Virus record (IMG/VR): IMGVR_UViG_2524023210_000007
Location: 16,429-80,428 of that record
Source of the DNA: a virus
Taxonomy: Duplodnaviria > Heunggongvirae > Uroviricota > Caudoviricetes
Direction: 5' to 3' (one strand)
DNA: 64,000 nucleotides
The stretch's first letter is position 1; every line of letters starts with the position of its first letter. Below the pieces are notes generated by a model. That model was not told the origin of the DNA. It worked only from the letters and a program-made list of their open reading frames with translations, and did no database searches. The translations under genes and the position numbers were made by a program. This document shows, in pieces, positions 1,099 to 53,086 of this stretch.

Positions 1099-1835
1099 TG
1101 TCCACGTCCGACCCGCACGCCGGCGCCCATCTGGAGCACCTGTCGGATCTTTGCCTGGTAGTTCGGGTTAGCTGCGGCCTTCGGATGTGCCGCGAACGCT
1201 CGGTAGATCTCGGCGAGCGGCACAGGACCCCGCTGCGCGCGCATCCAAGCCACGATTGCCTCACGCCAGGTCGGCTCGATAGCCAGAACAACGACACTCC
1301 GCGGCAGTCGGAGAGGCACGAATGCCCCGTTCAGCCCGCAGAAGGCGAGCATCTCGGCGTCGCGCGGGCCGTAGGCGCAGAGCACCGACGGAGCGCCGGC
1401 GTTTGCGGCGCGGCCTGACTGCCGCTGCGCCGTCCCGCCGTCGACGGTGTGGAAGTCGAGCCGGCCGCGCAGGAAGAGCAGCGCGGATGCCTGTTCCCAG
1501 ACGTACCGGAAGAAGGCCTCGGTTTCGGTCCTGGCGAATATCAGCGCGATGCCACGACCGTGGCCGGACATCCGTGCCAACCACTTGCCAATGACGCTCC
1601 GATGATACGGCGGGTTGAGGAAGACTCGGCCGAACCACGGCAGAAGCAGCCCGTTGTCGCGGATGGTGTAATGGTGTGCGGCGGTCGGCCATGGCCGCAC
1701 AATCGGCGCGCACGGATCCAAATCAAACGGGCCCAGGGCTTTCAGCACCGCGGGCGGCGTCAACCACTCGTCGGTGCGAGTCCGCCGCGGCGTCTGGTGG
1801 GCGCCGATACCGGCAAAGAGCGGAGCGGTCGTCAT
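1083..1835 (-). CDS. phage DNA N6-adenine methyltransferase (Dam-like, pfam05869-type)
   Basis: LTPP...DLDPCA and FLNPPY motifs; ATGA overlap with upstream gene. Confidence 0.75.
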   Translation of the reverse strand: MTTAPLFAGIGAHQTPRRTRTDEWLTPPAVLKALGPFDLDPCAPIVRPWPTAAHHYTIRDNGLLLPWFGRVFLNPPYHRSVIGKWLARMSGHGRGIALIFARTETEAFFRYVWEQASALLFLRGRLDFHTVDGGTAQRQSGRAANAGAPSVLCAYGPRDAEMLAFCGLNGAFVPLRLPRSVVVLAIEPTWREAIVAWMRAQRGPVPLAEIYRAFAAHPKAAANPNYQAKIRQVLQMGAGVRVGRGQWSAS

Positions 1836-2023
1836 GCTGCGTTCCCAGCGTGTATTGCGCGTTGGAGAGCGCGGTTGACGATCTTGATGCGCTCAAGCTG
1901 GTACTTCGCGCTCCAACTCGCCTGAGCCTCGGCGATCTTCTTTGCTTCGGCATCACACTCCCGCATGAATGCGGCTTCGGCTGGCGTGAGGTGCTTCCGC
2001 CAATTCCACTTCTGCCTCTTCAC
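1832..2023 (-). CDS. small hypothetical protein (~63 aa)
   Basis: K/E-rich non-GC-skewed composition; GTG start overlapping kinase stop (GTGA), stop overlaps Dam start (ATGA). Confidence 0.4.
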   Translation of the reverse strand: MKRQKWNWRKHLTPAEAAFMRECDAEAKKIAEAQASWSAKYQLERIKIVNRALQRAIHAGNAA

Positions 2024-3753
2024 GGCGCCATCATCATCTGCCAAACGGCGCCGTCGATCAGGTAGACGATCCGCTCGCCCCAGGTCGCCAACTTCATCGC
2101 TGTGCTGACGCCGGTGTCGCGCACCTTGTTCACGACACCGGTGGTCGGCACAAAGATCGTGATCTCGAAATCATCGGTGATCGTGGCGACGACGCCGCGG
2201 GGCAGGATCGCCATATTGAGCTCGGGGCCGTCAGCCGGGCCGACCCATGCCTGGTAGCGGGTGAACGTCTTGTCGAAGGTGAGTTCGACCCTGCCGTAGA
2301 CACCCTGCTTATCGAGGACGGTGAAGGCCGCGAACTGGCTGCAGGCCTTGCCAGTGACAACGGTGCGGCCATCGAGTTCCGGCACCCGAATTTGTGAGAT
2401 GCCGCCGGCATGCGGCAGCACCACGAAGGCGTTGCCGAACACGTCGGTGACGGCGACGTCATCCAACCAGGTTGTGGCTCCGACCAGAATGTTCCAGCGC
2501 CGGTCCATGATCATCCGCGGTCGGCTGCCGGTATCGTTGAGCTCGAGCTCGATCAGTTCTCGGTCGGTTACTCCGAATAGGGTCTCGCCGGCCCGGAAGA
2601 CGCGCCGGAGCGGCACTGGCTGCGCGATAAACCTGCGACCGCCGGTGCCTCCAAATGGGATATGTGCGAAGTCGGTCGTGGTCGGGAGCGATATCACCCA
2701 GCCTTCCGGGACCTTGATGACCTCGGCATCGGCCGGCACCTGGTGCGCGATCGTGCCTCCGGTCGCCAGGTCGACGACTTCGCCGGACGTCAGCCGGGCG
2801 GCGCCATTCGCCCAGACTCGGGTGACGGGATCGCCGGCGCGTGCGAACAGATTCTCAAACACCAGAGCGCCGCCGGCTGCCGTCGTCACGGCGCGCATGA
2901 TCTGCGCGGCCTTCGCCGGCTTACCCATCGTGGTTGGCGCCGGCGGCGAGCCGCGCTTTCCATGTTGGAACGTCGCCTGGAACCAATCCAGCAGCGGGCC
3001 CGGAATGCAGGAGAAGCCACGGACCGACAGCGGCAGTTTCGCGCGCCGGTCGAAAACTGAGGCATTGTCCTTCATCCGCCGGACGAGATCGCCGGGTTTG
3101 TAGCCTTCAATCCTGCCCTTGTAGGGGTGGATGCCGGTGAAGACCTGGAAAGCGACGACCGCCCAGGCAAACCAATCAGTTTCGGTCGAGAAGGTTTTGG
3201 CGCTCCAGTCCCTGATGGACGGCATGATGACCGTCGCCGGCCAGCGGCCGATCGCCCAGGAGTCGACATCGATCACAGAGGCGGCCGCGGCATCCCCCTT
3301 CGTGAAGTGGACCAGCCAATTCAGTTCGTTGGCGTCGACCAGCAGGGCCTGCTTCGTGTGCGCATAGGCTACGATATCGAACATGCACTGGGTAAGCGCG
3401 ACGGCATCCCATTCACCGAACCCGGTCCGCGTCCGGTAATCCGAGACGAACACCCGCGACATCGGCTCGCCGTCGACGAACGGCATGTAGAAGCCGATCG
3501 GCTTCCCGGAGTCATCCAGCACCAGGCCGTGCGGAGCCACGATGCCGGGATGCTGCAGCCTGGCCAGCATCTTCACCTTCTCCGGCATGCCGTCGCGCGC
3601 CATCTTGTCGGCGTCGGTGTACAGTTTCACCACGGTCTGGCCGGTCCTGTAGATCGAACCTTCTCCGCCCGAGGTGACGTAGTCGCCGTCGCGTAGCGTT
3701 ACCGCACCGCGGCCCTCCAGAACGATCTTCACCGACCCTTTCCTCGAGGTCAT
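2020..3753 (-). CDS. Hanks-type Ser/Thr protein kinase with C-terminal beta-rich domain (TerY-P-type STK)
   Basis: Gly-loop GGEGSIY, VVKLY lysine, LVDANELNW catalytic-loop-like, DVDSW (DFG-like), TDWFAWAVV (APE-like); ATGA coupling upstream. Confidence 0.65.
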   Translation of the reverse strand: MTSRKGSVKIVLEGRGAVTLRDGDYVTSGGEGSIYRTGQTVVKLYTDADKMARDGMPEKVKMLARLQHPGIVAPHGLVLDDSGKPIGFYMPFVDGEPMSRVFVSDYRTRTGFGEWDAVALTQCMFDIVAYAHTKQALLVDANELNWLVHFTKGDAAAASVIDVDSWAIGRWPATVIMPSIRDWSAKTFSTETDWFAWAVVAFQVFTGIHPYKGRIEGYKPGDLVRRMKDNASVFDRRAKLPLSVRGFSCIPGPLLDWFQATFQHGKRGSPPAPTTMGKPAKAAQIMRAVTTAAGGALVFENLFARAGDPVTRVWANGAARLTSGEVVDLATGGTIAHQVPADAEVIKVPEGWVISLPTTTDFAHIPFGGTGGRRFIAQPVPLRRVFRAGETLFGVTDRELIELELNDTGSRPRMIMDRRWNILVGATTWLDDVAVTDVFGNAFVVLPHAGGISQIRVPELDGRTVVTGKACSQFAAFTVLDKQGVYGRVELTFDKTFTRYQAWVGPADGPELNMAILPRGVVATITDDFEITIFVPTTGVVNKVRDTGVSTAMKLATWGERIVYLIDGAVWQMMMAP

Positions 3754-7853: not shown

Positions 7854-8457
7854 TGGCCGGCCTCTTGATGTCGGCGATCACCTGGGCCGCGGCCTTCTCA
7901 ACGGCGAAAGCAAGCCGGTCCGCGTCGCTACCGTTCATGAAGGCACGGAGCTTGCGCTCCGCAGCACGAGCGCGCTCCTCCAGCTTGTTGTTGAATTGGA
8001 GGAGTTCGGTGACACGCGCTTCATGCACCACCTTCGGCACGGTCTCAGGATTGTACTTTCGGGCCCGTTCGGCGGTTTCTTCAGTCGTCATGACGAGTGC
8101 GTCGATCAAGTGTCGCTTCGGCTTCAGCCGCCCGCCGAGCGCTCGTATCCACGAATTTTGAATGGATGCGATCTCGATCAAAAGCTGGTCAGGCGCCTCC
8201 GGCTTTGGCTCAGCCGGCTTCGGACACATGCCGAGTTCAGCAAGCCGGCAATCAATCTCGTAGATCGTCAGACCGACCGCATGTCTCACCGCGGAACGGA
8301 TGAACTCGGTATTGATCGTGCCCAGAACATGGGTCTGGTGGCCTTCGTCCCAGACGGTGAAGTCGATCGTCCCAGTCGTGATGACGTCGGCCAGGCGCTG
8401 CGCGGCTTGGCGCCTATTGCGCAGATGGAGAGCTTCGTCGAGGAAATCGAGTTTCAT
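7846..8457 (-). CDS. hypothetical phage protein
   Basis: internal ATG (MKLDFLDEALHL) with GGAGG RBS; competing plus-strand ORF 7720..8637 is R-rich. Confidence 0.5.
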   Translation of the reverse strand: MKLDFLDEALHLRNRRQAAQRLADVITTGTIDFTVWDEGHQTHVLGTINTEFIRSAVRHAVGLTIYEIDCRLAELGMCPKPAEPKPEAPDQLLIEIASIQNSWIRALGGRLKPKRHLIDALVMTTEETAERARKYNPETVPKVVHEARVTELLQFNNKLEERARAAERKLRAFMNGSDADRLAFAVEKAAAQVIADIKRPANG

Positions 8458-10883: not shown

Positions 10884-11146
10884 TCCTTGTCGCGGCGGGT
10901 TTGCTCGAGCTTGGCGAGATAGGCCTCACGGAACTGCGCGAATGTCTCGAATTCACGGGGATCGTCGCGAAGCTTGAAGACGTCCCGCGATTGTCCGGCG
11001 TTTCGTCCGGTGCCGAGCCACGACGACAGCGAACCGATTACCTCGCCGCCTTCGTCGAGAAGGTCGTGACCGTAAGTGGAGCCACCGGTGGCGCGGATAT
11101 GAAGCACCAAGCGCCGTTGGATGATGGGTTTGGCAGAATCCGTCAT
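10847..11146 (-). CDS. hypothetical protein
   Basis: internal ATG (MTDSAKPII); ATGA overlap with upstream gene. Confidence 0.4.
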   Translation of the reverse strand: MTDSAKPIIQRRLVLHIRATGGSTYGHDLLDEGGEVIGSLSSWLGTGRNAGQSRDVFKLRDDPREFETFAQFREAYLAKLEQTRRDKEWTDAAPEGATK

Positions 11147-43224: not shown

Positions 43225-43433
43225 AGGAACCATCACCTCGCGCCGACCAGCTTAGGGCCTTGCGAGAAGCCAGATACGCGCGCAATCAGGCCCTGAAAAG
43301 CGAGCTCGACGCGCGGGATGCTGCGGCCGCGGCGAAGGAAGCGCCGCCGGCGCCGACAGCAAAGCGACCGCCGGCGAAGAAACGGCGCGCCAAGAAAGGA
43401 AGGCGCAGCCGGGGGAAGGACAATCGGTCGTAG
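43221..43433 (+). CDS. small basic protein (70 aa)
   Basis: GGAGGA RBS; ATGA overlap with previous gene. Confidence 0.4.
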   Translation: MKEPSPRADQLRALREARYARNQALKSELDARDAAAAAKEAPPAPTAKRPPAKKRRAKKGRRSRGKDNRS

Positions 43434-43435
43434 CG

Positions 43436-43771
43436 TCAGTCCTCGACGTCGGCATCAGCCGGCATCTGCCTCAGCTTCTGGTAGGGGAATTCGCCGAGTT
43501 CGGGATGGAGTCGGTCCGCCTGGATCATTGCCGCGGCGGCCATGCGCGCGGTCCCGAGCGCATTCGGGACCGTCAGGAGCGTCAGTGCGATCGGCACCCA
43601 GGTCGGAATATCCTGGACCTGGCCATCCTTCTCGCGGCCCCATCGGTTCACAGTTACCAGGTTCTGGCAGAACACGCGCGCGAAGGACTTCCGGGTCAGG
43701 CCCTGCCGTGCCAACTCGGTATCGAAATCTGCGCCCGAGATCTTGCGGTGAATAAATCGAGGTGGGGCCAT
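43436..43771 (-). CDS. HTH (XRE-like) regulator
   Basis: LTRKSFARVFCQNLVTVNRWGREKDGQ; GGAAAGGA RBS; first gene of leftward island. Confidence 0.5.
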   Translation of the reverse strand: MAPPRFIHRKISGADFDTELARQGLTRKSFARVFCQNLVTVNRWGREKDGQVQDIPTWVPIALTLLTVPNALGTARMAAAAMIQADRLHPELGEFPYQKLRQMPADADVED

Positions 43772-43804
43772 CTGAGGATCCTTTCCAATTGGGCACGGTT
43801 GCCC

Positions 43805-43857
43805 GGAATCGGCCGTAGCCGAGGGGTTAGCACAAAATCGATCGTAGCCGGGAGTCC
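43805..43857 (-). repeat. boundary repeat family 1, two direct copies (sense CYCCCGGCTACGRYCGATTTY)
   Basis: immediately 3' of the stop at 43865 and 5' of the RBS of gene 43436..43771. Confidence 0.6.
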
Positions 43858-43864
43858 CCGTCGG

Positions 43865-44239
43865 CTAGCTGAAGTCCAGCGGGGATACCAGGTGCCTGCC
43901 GACCGTCATCACCGGCGGGATGACGCCGCCGCGCTCGATCGCCGCCAGCCATTCCTTTTCGGTTCCGGTAAAGCCAGGTCCCGCCTCGACGTGATGGTCG
44001 GCCAGCCATTTGGCGAGCTCGCAAGTCGAAGCGCAGGGCGGCGATACCGGTGTCCCGGCGCTGGTGGTCTCGTACATCTGCCAGTGCGTCCGCTCCATCG
44101 CCGGCCACGCCGGCATATAGCTGGCGGCAGGATAAGGCGCGGGCGCATCCGGGAGGGCCTCGGCCAGCGGGATATAGCGGCCGGCGGAGTTGCGCGGGTG
44201 CTTCCAGTCGGCGGGCACGCGCCTAACGGTTCTGCTCAT
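43865..44239 (-). CDS. hypothetical protein
   Basis: internal ATG (MSRTVRRVPADWKHPR). Confidence 0.4.
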   Translation of the reverse strand: MSRTVRRVPADWKHPRNSAGRYIPLAEALPDAPAPYPAASYMPAWPAMERTHWQMYETTSAGTPVSPPCASTCELAKWLADHHVEAGPGFTGTEKEWLAAIERGGVIPPVMTVGRHLVSPLDFS

Positions 44240-44805
44240 GACGCCATTCCCTGACGCGCGAAGGGCCAAAGCCATTGGTCGATCCACGCGATAGTGGTTC
44301 GGTTGGCTTTGGTGGTGCGGCGCTGGTGGAGGCTGACCAGCCAGTGATATCCGTCCGCGAGGTCATCGGCGTGCTGCCCTTCGCCAAGTCCGATTAGGAC
44401 GTCACCCCACGACGCAACCATTCGGCGGCCGTCGCGGTCAGGCATGCCGTAGAGATAGAGCGAGCCGCCACCGCCGATCATCGGAGCGACGATCCAGGTA
44501 TAGAACTTGCCAGAACGGATTGCCGTCTTGAGATCGACAGCGAAGTCCTCTCCCATCGCTGATAAGAGCCGATGGAAAGGCACCTTCATCTCTTCGTCAT
44601 TCGGATCGACGCCGGCGCCATGCCACTCAGCCCAGCCATGGCTTTGGAAAATGTGCCGGCACTTTGATTCGTAATGCTGCCGCTGGCGGCAAACGAGGCA
44701 GTAGACCGTGTTGCTGTCGCAGTCGTCGCAAAGCATATTGTCGCGAAACACTTCGCCCACAGTCTCGCACCACTTACAGGTCCCAAGTTTGTAGTCGGTT
44801 GGCAT
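44236..44805 (-). CDS. Cys-rich hypothetical protein
   Basis: GAAGGAGG RBS; CKWC...CDDC...CLVC N-terminus. Confidence 0.5.
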   Translation of the reverse strand: MPTDYKLGTCKWCETVGEVFRDNMLCDDCDSNTVYCLVCRQRQHYESKCRHIFQSHGWAEWHGAGVDPNDEEMKVPFHRLLSAMGEDFAVDLKTAIRSGKFYTWIVAPMIGGGGSLYLYGMPDRDGRRMVASWGDVLIGLGEGQHADDLADGYHWLVSLHQRRTTKANRTTIAWIDQWLWPFARQGMAS

Positions 44806-44817
44806 CTATATCCTCCT

Positions 44818-45264
44818 TCACCTGGTCGGATGGAAGTTCAATTCGACCGATTGCTCGTGAGCGTCGTAAAGCGCCCTGATGTTGAGCCAATCGGTGGAGC
44901 GACCGTCGTTAGGACGCAGCCCAACCATGAGTCCGCCTTCCGGCGCCGGTTCAGAGAACAGCGCGCCAGAACCGAGAACAATGATCTGGCCGATCTCCGG
45001 TGTGCGCGGCGAAACACCGCGGAAGAGATCGCCAATATGCGTGCTCTCGCGAGTCTCTTTGACGACCGCGACCAGATCGCCTCTGTGGCCATCGAAGATG
45101 CGAGCCGTCTCGCGATCGATCAGCGAAGGCGACGGGATCGTGGTGAGCGAGGTCTGGCCGTCCTGGATCAAATAGACCGTGCCGTAACGATCGCTGCGGC
45201 GCTCCGACCCGCACCAGGTCAGGGTACCGACACCCAACAGGCGATTGATGACTTGATGTTGCAT
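44818..45264 (-). CDS. hypothetical protein
   Basis: AAAGGAGG RBS. Confidence 0.5.
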   Translation of the reverse strand: MQHQVINRLLGVGTLTWCGSERRSDRYGTVYLIQDGQTSLTTIPSPSLIDRETARIFDGHRGDLVAVVKETRESTHIGDLFRGVSPRTPEIGQIIVLGSGALFSEPAPEGGLMVGLRPNDGRSTDWLNIRALYDAHEQSVELNFHPTR

Positions 45265-45284
45265 GCATTCCTCCTTTCGGTTTG

Positions 45285-45304
45285 AAAATCGATCGTATCC
45301 GGGG
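45285..45304 (-). repeat. boundary repeat family 1, single copy
   Basis: plus-strand AAAATCGATCGTATCCGGGG; starts right after the stop of gene 45306..45617 and ~17 nt before next ATG. Confidence 0.6.
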
Positions 45305-45305
45305 A

Positions 45306-45617
45306 TCAGGATTGACCGGCTGTCTCAAGAACTCGTTTCAGGTCGAAGAATTCGACCATGGCAGGCACGCCCGTGCCGTCCCATTCCCAGATGACCCCAG
45401 TGAAGATCATCCGGTTTGCATCGCTGTGCTTGGTCGAGATATACGCCTGGGCCTCCTCCAGTGTCGGATAGCCATCGGAGTGGTGACCGATCGACTTGTA
45501 GCGCTAAGCGGTCATCTCGGCATCGGCGTTGCCAGGCATCGGGTAGGCACGGAACGGAATCGGGTGAAAGCGCCCAGTGGCGGTGTTCTTCAAAATGCCG
45601 GTGGGAAAGACGTTCAT
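45306..45617 (-). pseudogene. gene interrupted by in-frame amber codon (TAG at 45504..45506); possible RNase-H1-N/caulimovirus-VI-like fold
   Basis: GAAAGGAGA RBS + ATG at 45617; 37 codons, TAG, then 66 further in-frame codons to TGA abutting the family-1 repeat. Confidence 0.4.
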
Positions 45618-45636
45618 TGCGGGTCTCCTTTCTTCT

Positions 45637-45659
45637 GAAAATTGATCGTATCCGGGAGG
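45637..45659 (-). repeat. boundary repeat family 1, single copy
   Basis: plus-strand GAAAATTGATCGTATCCGGGAGG between stop of 45661..45939 and RBS of 45306..45617. Confidence 0.6.
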
Positions 45660-45660
45660 A

Positions 45661-45939
45661 TCAGAACAGTGAGCCTTGCGCCACATCTTCTAGCGGCGCC
45701 GCCGGCGTCCGACCGAGATGCTCGACCGTTTCGCCTATGATCTGGTCGCGGTCGTCGTCGATGAGAAGCCAACCGCGATCGCCGCCGGCAGGATCGTAAA
45801 CGACGAAGTCGCCGCCCCAGCGCTTGAAGATTCGTTCAGCAACGAGGCGCATGCCGGCGGGCACGTCGGTTGTGGCCTCGAACTCGGCGCGCGTAACGAT
45901 CTTGAAGCCCGCATTGATCAGGGTCTGTTCTCCGTTCAT
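45661..45939 (-). CDS. hypothetical protein (92 aa)
   Basis: internal ATG; coupled to upstream stop. Confidence 0.4.
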   Translation of the reverse strand: MNGEQTLINAGFKIVTRAEFEATTDVPAGMRLVAERIFKRWGGDFVVYDPAGGDRGWLLIDDDRDQIIGETVEHLGRTPAAPLEDVAQGSLF

Positions 45940-45940
45940 G

Positions 45941-46498
45941 TCAATAAACCTCGGCACCGATGCAAGCCGCGACGGCCGCGCGATACTCGCCGCCCGCGCG
46001 GTCCATGCGCTGCCAGACCTCCTTGCCGCCGAGCTTGTCGGCCAGCCATGCGAAGTCGGTCACGTAGAGGATGGCGTGCAGCAAGACCCGCTCGCCCGAA
46101 CTGCAGACGCCGTCGCATTGCTTGGCGAGTTTCACGAAACGCCCTTTGTCAGGATCGTTGAACTGCACGATAGAACTTCGGAGATGCCGCCAACTCTGCG
46201 CCGACTCGAGGTATTCGAGAAGACCCATCTTCCGAAAGATGCTGCGCGCCGGCTCACTAGCCTTGAAGCGCTCGAATCTGTGAACGTTCGCGCGTGCGTG
46301 GCCGAGTTCTTCGGCGACGTCGGGCATCCTTGCCCAGGTCCGTCCCGCATTCGTGATCTCGATCATACCGGGGTCGACACGTCGAGCCATCCCGGTATTG
46401 ACGAGAACACGCTCGGGGATGCGGTCGTGATCGGTGCGCGGTCCTTTCATGAGTTCATTGAGCAGCATCTGTTCCTCAGACGTCAGTTGGGTCGACAT
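45941..46498 (-). CDS. hypothetical protein (185 aa)
   Basis: GAGGAGA RBS. Confidence 0.5.
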   Translation of the reverse strand: MSTQLTSEEQMLLNELMKGPRTDHDRIPERVLVNTGMARRVDPGMIEITNAGRTWARMPDVAEELGHARANVHRFERFKASEPARSIFRKMGLLEYLESAQSWRHLRSSIVQFNDPDKGRFVKLAKQCDGVCSSGERVLLHAILYVTDFAWLADKLGGKEVWQRMDRAGGEYRAAVAACIGAEVY

Positions 46499-46515
46499 GG
46501 GTAAATCTCCTCTTC

Positions 46516-46566
46516 AAAATCGGCCGTAGCCGAGGGGAACGGGAAATCGGTCGTAAGCGGGAGGGC
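46516..46566 (-). repeat. boundary repeat family 1, two direct copies
   Basis: between stop of 46577..48877 and RBS of 45941..46498. Confidence 0.6.
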
Positions 46567-46576
46567 GCAGCCGGGG

Positions 46577-48877
46577 CTATCCCGGCGGCCCGTCGATCAC
46601 CACCAGCGCGGTATTCACCATCGTGCCGGCAGACTTGAACGAGCCGGCGGGCAGCGGCCTATATTCGAGAGCGATCGGCTCAAGGCGCGCGCGCTGCCGC
46701 GGGCCGTCGGCGCAGATCGCGACGAGCCGGCCGCCAGGCCGCAAGAACGTGCGGGCGTGCTCAATATGCCGGATATCGTCGCCATCCTTGAATGGCGGGT
46801 TCATCAAGACGCGATCGAACTTGCCGAGCTCGTCCGTGCTGCACTTGAGGAAGTTAGCGCAGTGAATGCGCAGGCCGCTAACTGGCGCACTGGCCAGGGC
46901 CTGCACCAATTGCGGGTTGATCTCGACCGCCACCTTATCGGGCGCTGGACCAATCGCCCGGAGGAGGGCGCCGGTTCCAGCGCTCGGCTCCAGGACACGA
47001 TGATCGGGCTCGATCTCGGCGAACTCGACGACGTCAGCGGCCAGCCTCGGCGGCGTTTCGAACAATTGCGGTGCGACGACAACTTGCACGCCGCCGCCGC
47101 GCAGCACCGCCCGCATGGCCTCAAAATCAGCCGTAGGCGAGGGAGGCGGCAAATCGGCCGTATCCGGGAGAGGGTCGAGCGCGGGCGCATCCGGCAGGCT
47201 GCAATCCAACGCGCTGCGCAACTCGTCGATCTTAACCCATCTCCACCCTTTGCTGCCATTAAGGCAGGCGGTTTTCAGCTCAACAAAACCATCCTCGGTT
47301 CGAAGCACTTCGCAAGACTCGCCTTGAAAAGTGAAGCGGTCGCCTTTGGTGAAAGCGAGCGCGGCCGCATCCAGGGTCATCGCCCGCGGGACAGGGTGCG
47401 GCTCGGCCATGATCTCGCCGACCGTCGCCAGCATGTCGTCAAGATCGACCGCGGGCGGCGCGACATACACCGCCACGAATTCGGCCGGCTCCTTCGGCTC
47501 CGCGGGCCGCGCGATCTTGGGCGGGTCGACGCGCTTTGCATCCGTGATGAAAACTTGCTGTTTCTTCCAGAACTCGCCAGGCACCGGCATTTGGCGGACA
47601 CGGTGCGCGCCGTGGGTCTCGGTCTCCTTCACCTTGCCGATATACGGGAAATCAGAGAACTGCCGGCGCGCCTTCCATTCGGCTTCCGTCATCTCGCGGA
47701 ATCCCTCGCCAGGATAGTTGCAGATCGGCGGGAGCTTGGCGGCGGCCTTCGCCGCGGCGACGTTCTCCGCGCTCGGTGCCCGATAATCGCGGATGCTTTC
47801 CACGCTCCAGCGCGCTTGCTTGGAGCGCGATCCGGCCGGCGCGGTCGTCGTCATGCTGGAAACCGAACCGTTGGCGCCCCTGTTGACCTTCAGCACCGTA
47901 AGCCATTCGTCGCCGCGGCGGGTCTGCACCTGACCGCCGACCGCGAAGGCGAAGCGGTCCGCAAGCGGGTTGGCAGTCGCCTCCGTGCCGATCTGCTCGG
48001 CCAACATCGCCCGTTCATAGGCCAGCCGGTTGTCATAGTGCGCCATCCAACGGTCCCGCCGAGGCCCTGAGCGTTCCAGGCTCGGAATCGCAATGGCGGC
48101 AGCCTGCGCGGCGGTGATGACGTTCCCGTCAATCGCCGACCAAAGGCCCATCGGTCCCTCATACTGCGAGGCCGGCGGGTCGCGCGGATAGTCGGCCAGC
48201 GGAAACGACATCGACCAATAACCGCCGATGTTGGCCACGGCCAAACCGGCGGCGCGCTGCCTCCCGGGGTCCGTGATGCCGGCGACGATCTGCCAGCCCT
48301 TCAGCTGCCTTTCGGTCTCCGCCTGCTGCTTCTCCAGCTTCCGCTTGTCGGACTCAATGCCCTTGATGCGGCGATGACGCACCGCCGGCAACTCCTTATA
48401 CTTCGCATGAGCGAGGGCGCCGGCGGCTCGCGCCGTCCAATAATTCGAGGTGTCCCAGAGTTTCAGCGCCTTCCGCATGCCGTTGTCCATGCGTTCTTTG
48501 TCTTTTCGCGCGCTCTTCTCCGAGTGATGGCCGACGAGGATGGGCTGCCCAAACGCGAAGCGTTCGGCGATTTGGTCGACCGCGTCGCGGGCGCGGTTGG
48601 CTTCGGCCAAGCGCTTGTCGCTGTACTCCTCGAAGCGGTCGGCGCGCTGCTCGGCGCGATCTACAAGGCTTGTGTCCTCGTCGCCGATCTCACCGCAGAG
48701 CTCAATCAGCAAATCTTCCCGGCTTGGCGTCCAGGTCGGCGCGACGAAAAGCCCCTGTTTCGGCGCCCACTTGAAGCCGGCGGCTTTCACGCGCGCGTAT
48801 GTCTCGGGATCGAGGCGCGAGACGGAATAGAGGCGAAGGCGGTTGTCGTCAGGGCAATAAGTAGCAGTCATGGTCAT
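46577..48877 (-). CDS. large fusion protein: ~600-aa conserved N-terminal region (ICE/plasmid-type, DUF3560-like?) + C-terminal gamma-class N6-adenine MTase
   Basis: C-terminus: motif I VLEPSAGTGALL, motif IV NPPF; AAAGGAG RBS 8 nt before ATG (MTMTATY); family-1 repeat pair encoded in-frame as linker. Confidence 0.6.
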   Translation of the reverse strand: MTMTATYCPDDNRLRLYSVSRLDPETYARVKAAGFKWAPKQGLFVAPTWTPSREDLLIELCGEIGDEDTSLVDRAEQRADRFEEYSDKRLAEANRARDAVDQIAERFAFGQPILVGHHSEKSARKDKERMDNGMRKALKLWDTSNYWTARAAGALAHAKYKELPAVRHRRIKGIESDKRKLEKQQAETERQLKGWQIVAGITDPGRQRAAGLAVANIGGYWSMSFPLADYPRDPPASQYEGPMGLWSAIDGNVITAAQAAAIAIPSLERSGPRRDRWMAHYDNRLAYERAMLAEQIGTEATANPLADRFAFAVGGQVQTRRGDEWLTVLKVNRGANGSVSSMTTTAPAGSRSKQARWSVESIRDYRAPSAENVAAAKAAAKLPPICNYPGEGFREMTEAEWKARRQFSDFPYIGKVKETETHGAHRVRQMPVPGEFWKKQQVFITDAKRVDPPKIARPAEPKEPAEFVAVYVAPPAVDLDDMLATVGEIMAEPHPVPRAMTLDAAALAFTKGDRFTFQGESCEVLRTEDGFVELKTACLNGSKGWRWVKIDELRSALDCSLPDAPALDPLPDTADLPPPSPTADFEAMRAVLRGGGVQVVVAPQLFETPPRLAADVVEFAEIEPDHRVLEPSAGTGALLRAIGPAPDKVAVEINPQLVQALASAPVSGLRIHCANFLKCSTDELGKFDRVLMNPPFKDGDDIRHIEHARTFLRPGGRLVAICADGPRQRARLEPIALEYRPLPAGSFKSAGTMVNTALVVIDGPPG
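47123..47174 (-). repeat. boundary repeat family 1 pair embedded in-frame inside the fusion ORF
   Basis: encodes ...LDPLPDTADLPPPSPTADFEAMRAV... just upstream of the MTase domain; coordinates approximate. Confidence 0.5.
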
Positions 48878-48896
48878 AGTGGTTGCTCCTTTCATC

Positions 48897-48912
48897 TTGC
48901 GCACAATCGCGC
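48897..48912 (-). repeat. palindromic repeat family 2 (TTGCGCACAATCGCGC) upstream of RBS
   Basis: 12-28 nt upstream of the 46577..48877 start, directly 5' of its SD. Confidence 0.55.
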
Positions 48913-48919
48913 TTTTCGG

Positions 48920-48977
48920 GAATCAGCCGTGACCGGGAGTCGCGGCTATCAACGGGAAATCAGCCGTAGCGGAGGCC
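48920..48977 (-). repeat. boundary repeat family 1, two direct copies
   Basis: begin immediately after the TAG of micro-ORF 48978..49085. Confidence 0.6.
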
Positions 48978-49085
48978 CTAGCGCAGGGCCTCGCACTGTT
49001 CGATATGGCGGACGATCAAATAGAACGGCCGCAACTGGTGACAGTGGGGACAACGCAATTTGCGTGGTTGCGGTTTGCGCGTCAT
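48978..49085 (-). CDS. micro-ORF, 35-aa zinc-ribbon-like peptide
   Basis: MTRKPQPRKLRCPHCHQLRPFYLIVRHIEQCEALR; stop abuts a family-1 repeat as at other gene boundaries; no clear SD. Confidence 0.3.
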   Translation of the reverse strand: MTRKPQPRKLRCPHCHQLRPFYLIVRHIEQCEALR

Positions 49086-49103
49086 GGCAGCGGCACCGGA
49101 CCG

Positions 49104-49442
49104 TCAAGACGTGAGGCGCGTGCGAAGTCCCTCGCGAATTGAACGCGGCCATTCCGGAGGCCCCGCAGATACATGAATCGGTGGTGCGCGATCATGTTGA
49201 CGAGGCCGAACGGGGTGAGGGCCGTTGTAGCAATTCATCCCGCCCCATGTCGCTTCAAGGTAGATACGGCGCCGGAAGGTTCCGCATTCGATATAGATCG
49301 TTCGGCCGACGCGCGAGGGGTGGCGCCGGGCCAGGCGCATTGCTGTTGAGGCCGCGCGCCATTCCGATTGTGAGCGCGGCGCCGGCCTCGACTTCAAAGC
49401 GTCGCACATTTCCGAGAACGTCGATTCAGGTTTACGTTTCAT
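49104..49442 (-). CDS. hypothetical protein (112 aa)
   Basis: internal ATG 12 nt after stop of upstream gene; R-rich, so uncertain. Confidence 0.3.
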   Translation of the reverse strand: MKRKPESTFSEMCDALKSRPAPRSQSEWRAASTAMRLARRHPSRVGRTIYIECGTFRRRIYLEATWGGMNCYNGPHPVRPRQHDRAPPIHVSAGPPEWPRSIREGLRTRLTS

Positions 49443-49453
49443 CGGCGCCACCG

Positions 49454-50017
49454 TCAGGCCGCAAGCCGAATTGCGCAGGAAGGCGCAACCGGGACACGCG
49501 CCATAACGGGCACAAGGCAAGACGTGCGCAGGATCCTGCCCGGGATCTTGAGAGAAGGCGCAACCGGGACCGGTACCGCTTCCGGAATTATCTCCTCAAC
49601 CGGTTCGGCGGGCTGCCAATCCCAATTGGGAATCTCGATCCGCGACACGACGTCCCAATGGTGCGTTGTGCAGGCGGTGCGGCCGTAGCCGCTGGACGTG
49701 GTCCGACGCTTGCCGAATTCGACCGCACGGACACGCTTTTGCAACTTGCCATTTGGGCCGGTCACGCTGGACCAATCCACCACATACTCAAGCCCCGCCG
49801 GAATCTCGATTGCATCGCGGCGCGCCAGCCAATGCGCGTACGCGACCGCATGCCGCGCGTTCAAGTCATCGGCGGAAACGCCGCCGGTGCTGCGCGTGAC
49901 TTTCGAGCTATGCCGGACCTTGTGCCGCTTGTCGTTAGCGGAAGGCACCCAACGCTTTTCCGGAAGCGGGCCGTGAATCGTCGGATGGTCGAAAAAATCA
50001 TAGAACAGCCATGCCAT
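49454..50017 (-). CDS. hypothetical protein (187 aa) with internal VPVAPS direct repeat
   Basis: AAAGAGGAG RBS preceded by family-2 palindrome. Confidence 0.45.
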   Translation of the reverse strand: MAWLFYDFFDHPTIHGPLPEKRWVPSANDKRHKVRHSSKVTRSTGGVSADDLNARHAVAYAHWLARRDAIEIPAGLEYVVDWSSVTGPNGKLQKRVRAVEFGKRRTTSSGYGRTACTTHHWDVVSRIEIPNWDWQPAEPVEEIIPEAVPVPVAPSLKIPGRILRTSCLVPVMARVPVAPSCAIRLAA

Positions 50018-50038
50018 GCTAGATTGCTCCTCTTTCAG

Positions 50039-50055
50039 TTGCGCACAATCGCGCG
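50039..50055 (-). repeat. palindromic repeat family 2
   Basis: TTGCGCACAATCGCGCG immediately 5' of the SD of gene 49454..50017. Confidence 0.55.
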
Positions 50056-50079
50056 GTTTGAATCGTCGAAACGGTGCGG

Positions 50080-50283
50080 CTAGGCTGCCAACTCAACCGG
50101 CCGATAAGCCGTGCACCAATGCGGCCCGACGATGTAACCGCAGTGCACGGCGCTACCGTCCGGCTTGTCGCGGTACATTTTCGCGACCCGTCCGCCGCCG
50201 ATCTTGCTACGCAGCTCCGCAATGGTGCTGGCGCCCCAGCGGTTGCCGAATTGGTCTACGTAGAGAGTCCAAATTCCGCGCAT
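50080..50283 (-). CDS. small hypothetical protein (67 aa)
   Basis: AAAGGA RBS after family-2 palindrome; MRGIWTLYVDQFGNRWG... Confidence 0.45.
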   Translation of the reverse strand: MRGIWTLYVDQFGNRWGASTIAELRSKIGGGRVAKMYRDKPDGSAVHCGYIVGPHWCTAYRPVELAA

Positions 50284-50300
50284 GTCAGTATCCTTTCGAG

Positions 50301-50317
50301 TTGCGCACAATCGCGCG
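50301..50317 (-). repeat. palindromic repeat family 2
   Basis: TTGCGCACAATCGCGCG 5' of the SD of gene 50080..50283. Confidence 0.55.
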
Positions 50318-50374
50318 TTGGCCCGCTTTGGCGTTCCGTGCTGCGCTGGGCCAGGCCAGCGCAGTATCGCAACG

Positions 50375-50827
50375 TCAAGACATGGGAAGGCGGGAAATGT
50401 CGCGGAGTTGCGAGGCCGCGCATTCCGCTGCATCGCGAGTTGTGCAGTCTGTGATTGCTTGCGCCTCGCCGGAATGATGGCGAGCGTAAATCGTCCAGAA
50501 TTCGGCTTCACTGTTGGACTTCCCGCCGATGGTGAACGTGTCGCCATTTTCTTCCGTCTCGGTGACGCATCCGCCGATTTCCAGCGACTTGAATTGCGAC
50601 CAATCGGGCGCAATCTGGCCAGAGCAGCAATTGTAAAGAAACGAATTCGGCCGCGCCAAATAGATGCCGGCGGCGCCCTGCCATGTTGTCTCGCCGTTAT
50701 CCCATTTGACTTGAAGCGGTCCGTTCGCATTGTCGCGGACATCGACAACGATTCCCAAATCGCGGTCATCGGTGCCATTCGTGACGCGTGCGCCTATCGG
50801 CGGAAGGTGGGAGTTCTGCAGGTCCAT
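50375..50827 (-). CDS. hypothetical protein (150 aa), N/D/T-rich
   Basis: track ORF; GGGGA SD-like; natural composition. Confidence 0.5.
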   Translation of the reverse strand: MDLQNSHLPPIGARVTNGTDDRDLGIVVDVRDNANGPLQVKWDNGETTWQGAAGIYLARPNSFLYNCCSGQIAPDWSQFKSLEIGGCVTETEENGDTFTIGGKSNSEAEFWTIYARHHSGEAQAITDCTTRDAAECAASQLRDISRLPMS

Positions 50828-50932
50828 TTAGCGTCCCCTATGGGATGAATAGAATCCGGATCATGAGCAGCGCAAGGCCAGCGTCACTAACGATGTAGAG
50901 AAGGCGTGCCAGCCTTGCGAGGTGATAGGCCT

Positions 50933-51037
50933 TCACAGGCACGAATTCAGAAACGCGCGCTTACCGTGGCTCAATGCGGCGCGGCGAGTCCGCTTATCAA
51001 TCGGCTTGCGGTCGGAATCGTGGCGACGATACTTCAT
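50933..51037 (-). CDS. micro-ORF, 34-aa basic peptide
   Basis: AAAGGGAAA RBS after family-2 palindrome; MKYRRHDSDRKPIDKRTRRAALSHGKRAFLNSCL. Confidence 0.35.
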   Translation of the reverse strand: MKYRRHDSDRKPIDKRTRRAALSHGKRAFLNSCL

Positions 51038-51056
51038 AGCGGTTTCCCTTTCATGG

Positions 51057-51071
51057 TTGCGCAATTGCGCG
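51057..51071 (-). repeat. palindromic repeat family 2 (perfect GCGCAATTGCGC core)
   Basis: 5' of the SD of micro-ORF 50933..51037. Confidence 0.55.
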
Positions 51072-51125
51072 GTTCGGCGGTTGCCGATCATGCCCGGGAC
51101 AAGCCCGGGCATGGGCTGCAATCGC

Positions 51126-52004
51126 TTAGGCCGCGAGCGGAGCGGCGCCCTTGAGCTCCGCCATTTTCGCCGCGAGAGTGAAAAGAGCGCGGTTCAGTTT
51201 CACGTCTTGATCGATACCATTGACGGCGCGCGTGGTGACGCGGCGAGGGCGATTGTTAGCGTCACGGCCGCGCGCTGTGAGTCCGCCGCGAATGACGTTT
51301 TCCTGAACGACGTTAAACGTGGTCCAAAGGTCCGACGCGGTGTCATCACGGCGCCGCGGGCGGAGCAGTTGCGCGGGCTGAATCGGCGTATTGGTTTCGC
51401 CTTCCGCGTCGCCAAACCGCAGAACGTGCGCGGACTCCGCCAGCACTTGCTTTTCGTCGCTGTTGAGGGCCAGGCGCGCCCAGTCCTGCGGCGCCGCAAG
51501 CGCCTTCTGTGCTTCGCCCAAAACCCGATACGTGCCCTCGATCACCTTGTGCGAAACGTCCTGCGCGGTGCCGGTATGGCGGACCTTCACGGAATCGATG
51601 GTGCCGACTTGTGCCACAAGGCTGTTGAGGCAACGGACGCGGAAAAGTCCCGCGATCAGGTCATAGGCTGACGTTCCGTCATTCGCGTTCTTGAGGAGGA
51701 TTTCGCAGACGGTGTCACCGACGCTATACGCCGCGGCGTTGTCGAGACGGCGGAGACGGATAAGATGCTTCGTGAAGTCGCGGCGATCATCGATCCGCGC
51801 GACGCTCTGCTTTGCGCCGACAGGCTGGAAGCCCTCCGCCATCAGCGCGCGCAGCACGTCGAAAGTCGGGATTGGCTGAAAACGGTCAGAACGCGAGTGG
51901 TGCGCGTCAACCGCGAAAACGGACGGCGCCAGCTTGCGCAATTCGGTTTCGGTCAGGGCGCGGGCGGAGTCATCGAAGCGGGCGGTTGAGGTGTAGACGG
52001 TCAT
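51126..52004 (-). CDS. conserved phage/plasmid-associated protein (DUF932-like?)
   Basis: track ORF (292 aa); AAAAGGAAG RBS after family-2 palindrome; family assignment from memory only. Confidence 0.5.
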   Translation of the reverse strand: MTVYTSTARFDDSARALTETELRKLAPSVFAVDAHHSRSDRFQPIPTFDVLRALMAEGFQPVGAKQSVARIDDRRDFTKHLIRLRRLDNAAAYSVGDTVCEILLKNANDGTSAYDLIAGLFRVRCLNSLVAQVGTIDSVKVRHTGTAQDVSHKVIEGTYRVLGEAQKALAAPQDWARLALNSDEKQVLAESAHVLRFGDAEGETNTPIQPAQLLRPRRRDDTASDLWTTFNVVQENVIRGGLTARGRDANNRPRRVTTRAVNGIDQDVKLNRALFTLAAKMAELKGAAPLAA

Positions 52005-52023
52005 TGCAGATACTTCCTTTTCA

Positions 52024-52041
52024 GGTGCGCACTATTGCGCG
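52024..52041 (-). repeat. palindromic repeat family 2
   Basis: GGTGCGCACTATTGCGCG 5' of the SD of gene 51126..52004. Confidence 0.55.
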
Positions 52042-52095
52042 GTTTCGGCGATTTGCCGGTTATGCCGTGGCGTGCACGGCATAGGCTGCAAATCG

Positions 52096-52167
52096 TCAGA
52101 TACAGCACGCCACGATGACGAATGTGCCGACGCTGGCGAAGAGGAGAAAAAGCAAAAAGTCTTTCAT
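52096..52167 (-). CDS. micro-ORF, 23-aa hydrophobic peptide
   Basis: MKDFLLFLLFASVGTFVIVACCI; AAAGGTAAG SD after family-2 palindrome; coordinates approximate. Confidence 0.3.
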   Translation of the reverse strand: MKDFLLFLLFASVGTFVIVACCI

Positions 52168-52182
52168 GATCTTACCTTTCGA

Positions 52183-52200
52183 ATTGCGCACTATTGCGCG
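52183..52200 (-). repeat. palindromic repeat family 2
   Basis: ATTGCGCACTATTGCGCG 5' of micro-ORF 52096..52167. Confidence 0.5.
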
Positions 52201-52209
52201 GGTCGAAGC

Positions 52210-52377
52210 TTAGCGGCGGGAACGGCGCGCGCGGTGGCGGATCGCCCGGCGGCGCCGCGGTAGCGGTTCACTGTACTCGAAAACAAAAAGGACGATTAGG
52301 CCCAACGCGGCCAGGATGAGCAGGACGAAAACCGGAAACATCGGGTTGGCGATGCAGAAGGAAATGAGAGCGTTCAT
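52210..52377 (-). CDS. small membrane protein (55 aa) with poly-Arg tail
   Basis: MNALISFCIANPMFPVFVLLILAALGLIVLFVF...RRRRAIRHRARRSRR; family-2 palindrome upstream. Confidence 0.4.
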   Translation of the reverse strand: MNALISFCIANPMFPVFVLLILAALGLIVLFVFEYSEPLPRRRRAIRHRARRSRR

Positions 52378-52395
52378 TTCGCCGGGCCTTTGGAG

Positions 52396-52411
52396 TTGCG
52401 CACAATCGCGC
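52396..52411 (-). repeat. palindromic repeat family 2
   Basis: TTGCGCACAATCGCGC 5' of gene 52210..52377. Confidence 0.55.
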
Positions 52412-52451
52412 TTGAGAGAGTGGCGCGGCCGATTGACCGCGCCGGTAGTCC

Positions 52452-52631
52452 TTACTTGATTCCGAAAATCCAGAACGGGTTGGTTTCCGTCTGGGCGGGT
52501 TGCAGAGCGGCCGGCTTGCTCTTCTGTTCCTCCTCGATGTTGCGGCAGAGCATTTCGAGATAGCCGATGGTGCCAAGGCCTTGAGTGAAGTCGGGGCAGG
52601 GCGGAAGGTCTTTGGTCTTGATGACGGCCAT
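52452..52631 (-). CDS. small hypothetical protein (59 aa)
   Basis: AAAAAGGGAAAA RBS after family-2 palindrome; MAVIKTKDLPPCPDFTQGLGTIGYLEMLCRNIEEEQ... Confidence 0.45.
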   Translation of the reverse strand: MAVIKTKDLPPCPDFTQGLGTIGYLEMLCRNIEEEQKSKPAALQPAQTETNPFWIFGIK

Positions 52632-52651
52632 AGTCGTTTTCCCTTTTTCGG

Positions 52652-52668
52652 TTGCGCACAATTGCGCG
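52652..52668 (-). repeat. palindromic repeat family 2
   Basis: TTGCGCACAATTGCGCG 5' of gene 52452..52631. Confidence 0.55.
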
Positions 52669-52765
52669 TTCAGTGAAAGCACCATACAGGACCGGCCGGC
52701 CGTGTCAACAGGCAAAACGCAAAAAAGTGACGTTCGGCCGAAAAAAGTTAGTTCGGCGTCACAGA

Positions 52766-53086
52766 TCAGGGATGCAGCGCGCGGTACTGCGCCAGCAATT
52801 TGCCTGCCCGCTCAATGAATTGCCAGCTGTCGCCGGCCGAGATGCCGAGCTCCACCGCCCTGCAGCGCAGCGCGACGTCAGGGCCGGCGCCCATGGCGCG
52901 GTAGATCGCTATCGAGTTCGGCGAGGCGAAAATGGCGCGCGCCGCGGCGTTATTGGACAGGCCTAGCCGGTCCTGCCAGGCCACGAAGTCGGCCGCGCTG
53001 ATTCGCAGTGACGCGTCACCAGATGCAAAATCGCGCTTTTGCGGCGCTCGGACGTCGGCCGACTTTGTCGCGCTTTTCCTCGCCAT
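52766..53086 (-). CDS. putative HTH DNA-binding protein (first gene of leftward island)
   Basis: LGLSNNAAARAIFASPNSIAIYRAM HTH-like; track ORF. Confidence 0.4.
   Translation of the reverse strand: MARKSATKSADVRAPQKRDFASGDASLRISAADFVAWQDRLGLSNNAAARAIFASPNSIAIYRAMGAGPDVALRCRAVELGISAGDSWQFIERAGKLLAQYRALHP

Follow-up and report, generated by a model that had tools for sequence, protein, structure and literature searches.

The element reported here, a short hairpin repeated ahead of gene starts in a 64,000-nt stretch of a Caudoviricetes virus (IMG/VR record IMGVR_UViG_2524023210_000007, positions 16,429 to 80,428; hereafter the window, numbered from its first letter), can be set beside several described phage repeats. 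The SAS and ESAS repeats of Cluster K mycobacteriophages occur in about 10-20 copies at non-structural genes, and their function is still untested (PMC3203893). The SAS, GGGATAGGAGCCC, measures 13 bp, includes the Shine-Dalgarno sequence (SD) and is placed 3-7 bp away from the start codon, and the ESAS are 17-bp inverted repeats in which departures are uncompensated, for which the authors favored DNA binding (PMC3203893). The window hairpin resembles the SAS in its single orientation, its place just upstream of starts and its association with non-structural genes of unrelated families, and the absence of the SAS from the host background (PMC3203893) we count as a further likeness; unlike the SAS and ESAS, it lies 5' of the SD, combines a 4-6 bp stem with a 4-nt loop, shows compensatory changes and is unrelated in sequence. 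Stoperators of L5 and further phages in Cluster A and the 17-bp palindromes of Cluster O phages are invariant DNA sites that occur genome-wide and independently of translation starts (PMC4351075). With the stoperators the hairpin shares asymmetry, many short intergenic copies in phage operons and orientation with transcription, and with the Cluster O palindromes multi-copy intergenic sites with dyad symmetry, whereas it differs from both in covarying, in its linkage to the SD and in being found in one operon only.

Two further comparisons concern RNA. The RNase III sites R0.3, R0.5, R1, R1.1 and R1.3 of the T7 early operon are irregular duplexes of ~20 bp or more that are cut by host RNase III; the early transcript includes an anti-restriction gene, and the processed mRNAs are bracketed by hairpins. 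One promoter region, a polycistronic transcript and a hairpin 5' of each cistron, the first included, would be common to T7 and the window, and the T7 sites are the closest architectural analog for a processing model; unlike them, the window hairpin has a stem of 4-6 bp, too short for an RNase III substrate, and any processing here would be hypothetical. The coat-protein operators of MS2 and PP7 and boxB of lambda and P22 have a 4-7 bp stem and a 4-6 nt loop and occur once or twice per genome; the MS2 operator overlaps the start codon, and lambda boxB belongs to the nut sites together with boxA. These elements are of similar size, and in them too sequence specificity resides in the loop and closing pairs, the lower stem being able to covary; they are the closest analogs for a factor-binding model. 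In contrast to them, the window has at least nine copies 5' of the SD, and none of these known elements has its ANNG loop closed by an R-U pair.

Catalogs yielded no counterpart: no Rfam (release 15) family matched the window region at E <= 5 beyond chance miRNA-type matches, and none of ten related loci matched at gathering thresholds. A full-text literature search with the motif sequence returned unrelated primers only, and we found no paper joining DUF932, a family encoded in the hairpin region, with the term 'leading region'. Judged as a dimeric-repressor operator, the element lacks two conserved half-sites and has a promoter match upstream of copy 1 only; judged as a structured cis-regulatory mRNA element, it has compensatory base pairs and a constant position and strand relative to the gene start. 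The most likely reading is a phage repeat tied to gene starts and functioning as a cis-acting mRNA hairpin, of an uncatalogued kind, and we file it separately because the defining features of each family compared are missing.

The repeated hairpin and its placement

The minus strand carries eight copies of GCGC[A/G]AT[T/A]GTGCGCA within 48897-52668, and when 48.7-52.9 kb is read on that strand the motif appears as CGCGC[A/G]AT[T/A]GTGCGCAA, upstream of an SD and an ATG. Motif searches thereby bore out the initial annotation, which had listed eight minus-strand copies at these places. Seven were recovered as CGCGCRATTGTGCGCAA at <=2 mismatches in a mismatch search, and none of 100 dinucleotide shuffles gave eight CGCGCRATTGTGCGCAA matches (shuffle mean 1.36). 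The eighth, earlier singled out as a copy with a perfect core, is indeed present at 51059-51070 as GCGCAATTGCGC, 2 nt shorter than the others, and a regular expression finds it as GCGCAATTGCGCA at 51058-51070. Its ortholog in three related loci (L142, L220 and L221) is the full GCGCAATTGTGCGC, and the window copy is a 2-nt deletion.

Across the eight copies the ATG follows the core end by 21, 19, 17, 21, 20, 18, 22 and 20 nt, so that the placement proposed in the initial annotation stands and its spread of 10-28 nt narrows to 17-22 nt; measured from the end of the stem, the interval is 18-23 nt over all nine copies described here, and the motif overall ends at a fixed 16-23 nt from the ATG. 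Each core is followed by A(A/C), 2-6 nt and an SD of the (G)AAAGGA type, which agrees with the earlier placement of the copies immediately 5' of the ribosome-binding sites of minus-strand genes. The open reading frames (ORFs) behind hairpins 1-8 encode 59, 55, 23, 292, 34, 67, 187 and 766 aa, and the five of <=67 aa fit the former remark that many are micro-ORFs.

A structure-based descriptor added a ninth, divergent copy at 43791-43804 (minus strand), GGGCAACCGTGCCC followed by aattgGAAAGGAtcctcagATG, which reads GGGCA-ACCG-TGCCC, with stem GGGC/GCCC and loop ACCG, and lies upstream of the last gene of the cluster. With SD and start context required, the descriptor found 8 sites, against 0.88 +/- 0.88 (maximum 5) in 300 first-order Markov simulations of the window. 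All nine copies are intergenic and on the gene strand, as is every copy in each related contig, and they are restricted to 43.8-52.7 kb of the 64-kb window, where they precede, in one orientation, genes of unrelated families, all non-structural. Symmetry in the window is limited to the GCGC..GCGC arms, the center R-ATTG-T being asymmetric.

Distribution in related loci

Domain searches assigned the 292-aa protein to DUF932 and found DUF3560 and a methyltransferase domain in the 766-aa protein, and DUF932 homology was used to retrieve 79 loci. The nearest of these (L220, L221 and L280) carry the identical motif, and in close relatives, which are Bradyrhizobium-type prophages, the sequence is invariant. 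Six more distant loci (L222, L224, L229, L233, L255 and L287; DUF932 identity 61-77%) keep the hairpin position and its inner part but have other stems, in 5-9 copies per locus, all directly 5' of an SD. Divergent forms include GGCCG-ATTG-TGGCC, GCCA-ACTG-TGGC, GUCA-AUUG-UGAC, CUCA-AUUG-UGAG, GCCCG-AUUG-UGGGC and GGCUCG-AUUG-UGAGCC. Across distant relatives and apparently unrelated viral contigs, the conserved part is reduced to C-R-ANNG-U-G, and the outer stems vary freely yet stay complementary within one genome (GGCA/UGCC, GUCA/UGAC, CUCA/UGAG, GCCCG/UGGGC).

Scanning IMG/VR with GCGCRATWGTGCGCAA gave many single matches that lack SD context and look like chance. In about eight prophages of sequenced isolates it also gave clusters, of 3-10 copies each, in which all copies lie on the gene strand and have behind them AA, a gap of 2-6 nt, AAAGGA, a further 5-10 nt and the ATG. 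An exact 16-mer scan of a genome collection returned mostly single chance matches, and the only cluster among the matches listed, syntenic with the window, was that of Bradyrhizobium sp. C9. The initial annotation had held that abundance of the motif away from gene starts would speak against a regulatory role; what we found instead is that the listed single matches lack SD context and that clusters occur only in related mobile elements.

A wider IMG/VR scan combined GGCAATTGTGCC with an SD, and because a few hundred chance matches are expected its raw match count is uninformative. Among the 120 loci it returned, however, 20 bear 2-9 SD-linked hairpins with arbitrary compensated stems of up to 8 bp; those examined further (L316, L318, L305/L337, L341, L323, L344 and others) have 41-65% GC, and many hairpin-bearing viral contigs have no detectable DNA similarity to each other. 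Because SD-linked compensated hairpins recur in these loci, the hairpin family extends, on the sequence evidence, far beyond the Bradyrhizobium lineage. When the operon was compared by BLAST with GenBank phages and PLSDB plasmids, the DUF932 gene alone proved conserved, and the database searches gave no cultured phage relative. Upstream of the DUF932 genes of Rhizobiaceae plasmids the hairpin is absent, and another conserved leader stands in its place.

Covariation and folding of the stem

We aligned 55 distinct hairpins (alignment A1) and scored them against the structure ..(((((....))))).., to which 96% of the positions conformed by pairing, with 60 double-sided changes. The covariation score was 0.643, against 0.215 +/- 0.021 in shuffles, of which none of 500 reached 0.643, and pairing collapsed in all slid registers. 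Pair 4-15 is divided between CG (28) and GC (27), and pair 5-14 is GC in 34, CG in 13, UA in 7 and AU in 1; the fifth pair, which was outside the selection applied to A1, is paired in 45 of 55.

Controls in which the stem was unselected were run separately. When only R-ANNG-U with an SD, an ATG and an ORF was required, at least four further pairs were present in 64 of 251 sites, compared with 3.4% of 20,666 background sites. The site 5' of DUF932, picked by protein homology alone, has compensated stems in eight loci, GCGC being replaced by GGCC, GCCA or GCCC. Seven single genomes (L222, L224, L229, L233, L316, L318 and L341) carry differing stems around a constant loop A..G and constant closing pairs. 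The dimeric-regulator operator at a promoter start that had been suggested for the palindrome finds no footing in this pattern, in which the letters of the arms vary within genomes yet stay complementary. The other suggestion made then, a short 5' stem-loop (GCGCG/UGCGC), gains from the compensatory stems of relatives, the coding-strand orientation and the position directly 5' of the SD.

Stems are 4-6 bp long, rarely 8-9 bp. Predicted energies are -5 to -7 kcal/mol for GCGC-type hairpins and -1.4 to -3.5 kcal/mol for 4-bp variants, and in most modules the prediction leaves the SD unpaired. Folding of two modules of the marine viral contig L318 gave a further feature: each of its six modules (224-3100, plus strand) has an upstream CUCCUU that is the tail of a strong GC hairpin, and in the centroid fold this CUCCUU pairs with the SD AAGGA and encloses the start hairpin. 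An SD-sequestering switch limited to the L318 lineage is a possibility that this model raises.

Promoter and operon organization

From 53.9 kb onward the plus strand has terminase, portal, S49 protease and capsid genes; the 25-42 kb interval contains genes for a beta clamp, methylases and DnaB as well as a primase-like gene, and exonuclease and recombination-type genes occupy 0-16 kb. Because packaging, capsid, replication and recombination-type genes are all present, the window is a large prophage, in which the motif region forms a minus-strand accessory operon between the replication and packaging modules. The other operon ORFs matched no family in Pfam, PHROGs, NCBIfam and PADLOC scans. Neither Pfam nor NCBIfam gave a match for the 106-aa helix-turn-helix (HTH)-like protein encoded upstream, a candidate regulator of operon transcription whose contact with the hairpin would be hypothetical; the 111-aa HTH-like gene that ends the cluster is weakly similar to it.

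A single strong minus-strand match to a sigma-70-type promoter, TTGACA-16-TATGGT, was found in 46-55 kb. Its -10 hexamer ends 13 nt 5' of hairpin 1, and this promoter position would put the hairpin at about +7 in the primary transcript. This promoter is conserved in nine relatives (L280, L220, L221, L222, L224, L229, L305, L337 and L343) as a T-rich stretch, TTGAC(A/G), 16-17 nt and TATGGT or TATACA, with the first hairpin 7-13 nt after the -10; from this spacing the first hairpin is placed at about +1 to +7 of the transcript. Because a promoter was found solely upstream of copy 1, and is kept there in relatives, the other copies appear to be intercistronic. Internal hairpins come after stop codons and usually after a long GC-rich hairpin that has no U tract, and the 62 nt 5' of hairpins are more structured than control segments (-20.7 vs -17.1 kcal/mol, p = 5e-5). 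In L318 the preceding GC hairpin and the start hairpin are separated by 12 nt only, which excludes a conventional promoter there and is the plainest case of internal copies having neither space nor signal for one. The initial annotation had seen eight individually controlled units, a view at odds with a recognizable promoter at copy 1 only. Operon genes that have no motif (the 150-aa ORF at 50827 and the ORFs at ~49442 and ~49085) overlap or abut the preceding gene, and this suggests translational coupling. Coordinates are collected in table 1.

Table 1. Hairpins, promoter and adjoining features in the window
Feature	Position	Strand	Context
Sigma-70-like operon promoter, TTGACA-16 nt-TATGGT	52681..52708	-	T-rich ttttgcgttttgcc upstream; promoter scan
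Hairpin 1, GCGCA-AUUG-UGCGC	52654..52667	-	22 nt 5' of ATG 52631; 59-aa ORF 52452-52631
Hairpin 2, GCGCG-AUUG-UGCGC	52398..52411	-	ATG 52377; 55-aa membrane-type ORF 52210-52377
Hairpin 3, GCGCA-AUAG-UGCGC	52186..52199	-	ATG 52167; 23-aa hydrophobic micro-ORF 52096-52167
Hairpin 4, GCGCA-AUAG-UGCGC	52027..52040	-	ATG 52004; DUF932 protein, 292 aa, 51126-52004
Hairpin 5, shortened GCGC-AAUU-GCGC	51059..51070	-	ATG 51037; 34-aa basic micro-ORF 50933-51037
Hairpin 6, GCGCG-AUUG-UGCGC	50303..50316	-	ATG 50283; 67-aa ORF 50080-50283
Hairpin 7, GCGCG-AUUG-UGCGC	50041..50054	-	ATG 50017; 187-aa ORF 49454-50017
Hairpin 8, GCGCG-AUUG-UGCGC	48899..48912	-	ATG 48877; 766-aa DUF3560 + methyltransferase ORF 46577-48877
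Hairpin 9, GGGCA-ACCG-UGCCC, compensated stem	43791..43804	-	ATG 43771; 111-aa HTH-like ORF 43436-43771
106-aa helix-turn-helix-like gene, directly upstream of promoter	52766..53086	-	Syntenic in most relatives
Second repeated intergenic motif GSYTACGRYCGATT, 11 copies	43422..48971	-	Motif search

Several small features of the operon deserve mention in their own right. The two shortest products behind hairpin-SD modules, the hydrophobic 23-aa MKDFLLFLLFASVGTFVIVACCI and the basic 34-aa MKYRRHDSDRKPIDKRTRRAALSHGKRAFLNSCL, are conserved in relatives, and both of their micro-ORFs were missed by the stored gene calls for the identical contig. A basic 35-aa ORF at 48978-49085 (minus strand), MTRKPQPRKLRCPHCHQLRPFYLIVRHIEQCEALR, overlaps the preceding stop (ATGA), is kept in L142 and L013 and has a CxxC...H...C pattern; speculatively, it might be a zinc knuckle that binds nucleic acid. 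The intergenic segments 5' of hairpins 4 and 5 (52041-52095 and 51071-51125, minus strand) are duplicates of one larger module, gattgcagccYatgcc-stem-loop-ggcatRaYcggcaaNYcgccgaaMc followed by the hairpin, which recurs in relatives upstream of DUF932 and MKYR(K/R)H genes.

Proposed role and alternative explanations

Probably, judging from sequence comparison, the element is an mRNA hairpin at gene starts through which the translation and/or 5'-end stability of the operon's cistrons are controlled by one common handle, probably by way of a trans-acting factor. The copies themselves, their fixed position and strand, the one conserved promoter, the covariation and the broad distribution are observed. 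Most likely the element acts as RNA, in the mRNA; this, the binding of a factor and the direction of its effect we infer. A single-stranded hairpin is favored over a palindromic dimer operator because the outer stems covary within and between genomes, and the mRNA is favored as the site of action because of the fixed SD spacing, the coding-strand orientation and the single promoter. Recognition by a factor is preferred to a passive hairpin because the loop A..G, R-U and C-G are invariant over free and sometimes weak stems, and because the 4-bp variants retain the loop though thermodynamically weak. One minus-strand accessory-operon mRNA, running from the promoter at ~52.7 kb to ~43.4 kb, would carry the stem-loops, each marking the 5' edge of the ribosome-binding site of a cistron with its own intergenic translation start. 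The conserved C-R-[A-N-N-G]-U-G would form a 4-nt loop, with R-U as its closing pair and C-G next to it, and the outer 2-6 bp could be any pairing sequence, which the Bradyrhizobium-type lineage would have homogenized to GCGC in all copies. A phage or host factor may recognize the loop and closing pairs post-transcriptionally and so set translation initiation and/or 5'-end stability of all hairpin cistrons jointly, while the upstream GC-rich hairpins may bracket the 3' side of the preceding cistron; the more structured upstream 62 nt fit cistrons bracketed by 3' and 5' hairpins.

Several points weigh against this proposal. Alignment A1 was partly selected for pairing, since three inner pairs were required. 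Module folding energies are the same as those of shuffles (z -0.55 to +0.31), because of which the support is comparative instead of thermodynamic. The closing pair, A-U in 29 and G-U in 26 of the 55 hairpins, is always pairable on the sense strand, but the antisense strand would gain a U-G pair from the conserved flank C...A, which leaves the strand argument supportive and less than decisive. Co-occurrence analysis together with the Pfam, PHROGs, NCBIfam and PADLOC scans gave no RNA-binding candidate, and the most widely shared proteins (DUF932, DUF3560 and the HTH family) have no known RNA-binding activity. Weak internal promoters are possible, GC-rich alphaproteobacterial promoters being hard to predict.

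A more far-reaching version, which we put forward tentatively and regard as possible though doubtful, makes the hairpin the operator of a widespread phage 'RNA regulon', in which a hairpin-specific protein reads C-R-ANNG-U-G and thereby turns whole accessory-gene arrays on or off, or cuts them up, all at one time. That protein would repress or activate translation, or be a small Cas6-like endoribonuclease, the controlled genes would probably be anti-restriction or establishment genes, and the regulon would extend over many temperate phages of GC ~41% to 65%, most likely of Alphaproteobacteria (the host is known only for Bradyrhizobium sp. C9). A plainer and rather unlikely account dispenses with a dedicated factor: the hairpin would be a passive ribosome-binding cassette that insulates the SD from the variable sequence upstream and caps cleaved 5' ends against RNase E or RNase J, cleavage falling in the linker, so that newly acquired genes obtain predictable expression. 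The first copy at about +1 to +7 of the transcript, strong hairpins 5' of internal copies that could protect upstream 3' ends, SDs predicted as unpaired in most modules and the high variability, among relatives, of the genes behind the hairpins all accord with such a cassette, but it has no need for an invariant loop A..G or for fixed R-U and C-G closing pairs, which persist across DUF932 identities of only 60-75% and contigs of 41-65% GC, and several variants (-1.4 to -3.5 kcal/mol) are too weak to shield a 5' end alone.

Copy 1 overlaps roughly +1 to +20 of the sole promoter, the classical operator position, and HTH genes lie directly upstream and at the operon end, which would suit a DNA operator or 'stoperator' for a prophage repressor such as one of the flanking HTH proteins; the operon would be silenced in the lysogen by a block of initiation at copy 1 and of elongation at internal copies. 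L5 stoperators are likewise oriented, intergenic and multi-copy (PMC3203893, PMC4351075), and the invariant 8-bp core CRATTGTG would be readable by a monomer. We nevertheless hold this to be very improbable: protein-DNA recognition leaves the compensatory changes in the flanking 2-6 bp unexplained, tight SD/ATG coupling is untypical of stoperators, and the copies are confined to one prophage operon, with none spread over early and late operons. Very improbable, in our estimate, is a compact promoter for a phage-specific polymerase or sigma factor, comparable to the 23-bp promoters of T7 type or the hairpin promoters of the N4 virion RNA polymerase; every gene would then form a transcription unit by itself, with the upstream hairpins as terminators. 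N4 early promoters are small DNA hairpins, and a short conserved element at a fixed distance 5' of each gene, preceded by terminator-like hairpins, has the expected look; in L344, moreover, both copies directly adjoin -10-like sequences. Yet no RNA polymerase gene occurs among the annotated ORFs of the window, and the first copy has a canonical sigma-70 promoter, itself conserved, upstream of it. Variation opposite U is limited to purines, which suits the sense strand; N4-type hairpins, by contrast, work on the template strand. To the last candidate, a recombination linker in which the identical 16-mer offers short homology at gene boundaries for swapping accessory cassettes between prophages, we give hardly any credence: close relatives do differ in the genes behind hairpins while the 16-mer is identical, and the region is a mosaic of small accessory ORFs, but pairing kept across divergent stems in one genome and the fixed SD spacing stay unexplained, and recombination is at most a side effect of the repeats.

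Some familiar elements were also considered and rejected. For an intrinsic terminator, the stem is followed by AAC...GAAAGGA without a U tract, and the terminator scan lists no copy; an antisense terminator likewise has no U tract by inspection. Inspection also dismissed a sigma-54 site (wrong -24/-12 spacing), the lambda cII TTGC-N6-TTGC repeat (not maintained in relatives) and LexA, CtrA and FixK boxes, in line with the statement of the initial annotation that the motif resembles neither LexA nor CtrA sites.

A second repeated motif and other start-linked leaders

A second motif, GSYTACGRYCGATT(T), has 16 matches in the window, 11 of them on the minus strand, and none of 100 shuffles reached 16. 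The minus-strand copies, at 43422, 43807, 43836, 45287, 45640, 46518, 46545, 47125, 47152, 48921 and 48958, are often paired 27-37 nt apart, and the pairs lie directly 5' of an SD and ATG (those of the 185-aa gene at 46498 and of two ORFs, at 45616 and at 45264) or else immediately 5' of hairpins 8 and 9. In relatives, too, the motif is found upstream of hairpins. It has C-R-A-U-U in common with the hairpin loop and maintains no stem. As a tentative lead, R-A-U-U-G (the loop with its closing purine) and CGAUUUU of the second motif look like the enterobacterial RNase E preference RN|WUU.

At 47100-47170 (minus strand) a pair of second-motif copies lies in frame inside the 766-aa DUF3560-methyltransferase ORF, translated as ...PDTADLPPPSPTADFEAM..., and is followed by GAGGccATG shortly before the methyltransferase domain; it resembles a once intergenic stretch that has been fused in frame, or else an internal start for a separate methyltransferase. 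The ORF that starts at ATG 45616 (minus strand), with its own SD and a copy of the motif upstream, has an in-frame TAG at ~45506 and may be a pseudogene or two short genes.

Other leaders were met among the DUF932 loci. Shinella and Ensifer plasmids carry a near-identical leader of ~90 nt 5' of both DUF932 and DUF736 genes (L299, about 10990-11078 and about 7940-8030; L300, 7913-8002), which reads gaatgtcagaggccattcccccggaaagaccgg.gaggcttcgccc...cttcgggaaac..caggagacagac-ATG and matches no Rfam family. Three metagenome loci (L243, L253 and L235) have a different start-linked module 5' of at least three genes each, CGCGTT-(3-6 nt loop)-GACGCG, AATAGGAGAGCAA and ATG, whose stem is constant and loop variable, the reverse of the window's family. 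In further DUF932 loci, hairpins with AATCC, AATCAC or ATCG loops lie directly 5' of the SD.

Significance

Start-linked repeats have been known in mycobacteriophages since 2011, without evidence of RNA structure, and for the hairpin described here such evidence exists. As a compact, modular 5' element it may find use in engineering operons of GC-rich alphaproteobacteria, and in annotation a hairpin-SD module points to real micro-ORFs (23-34 aa) overlooked by gene callers. Its recurrence across dissimilar contigs makes the mRNA-level coordination of small accessory-gene arrays directly testable.

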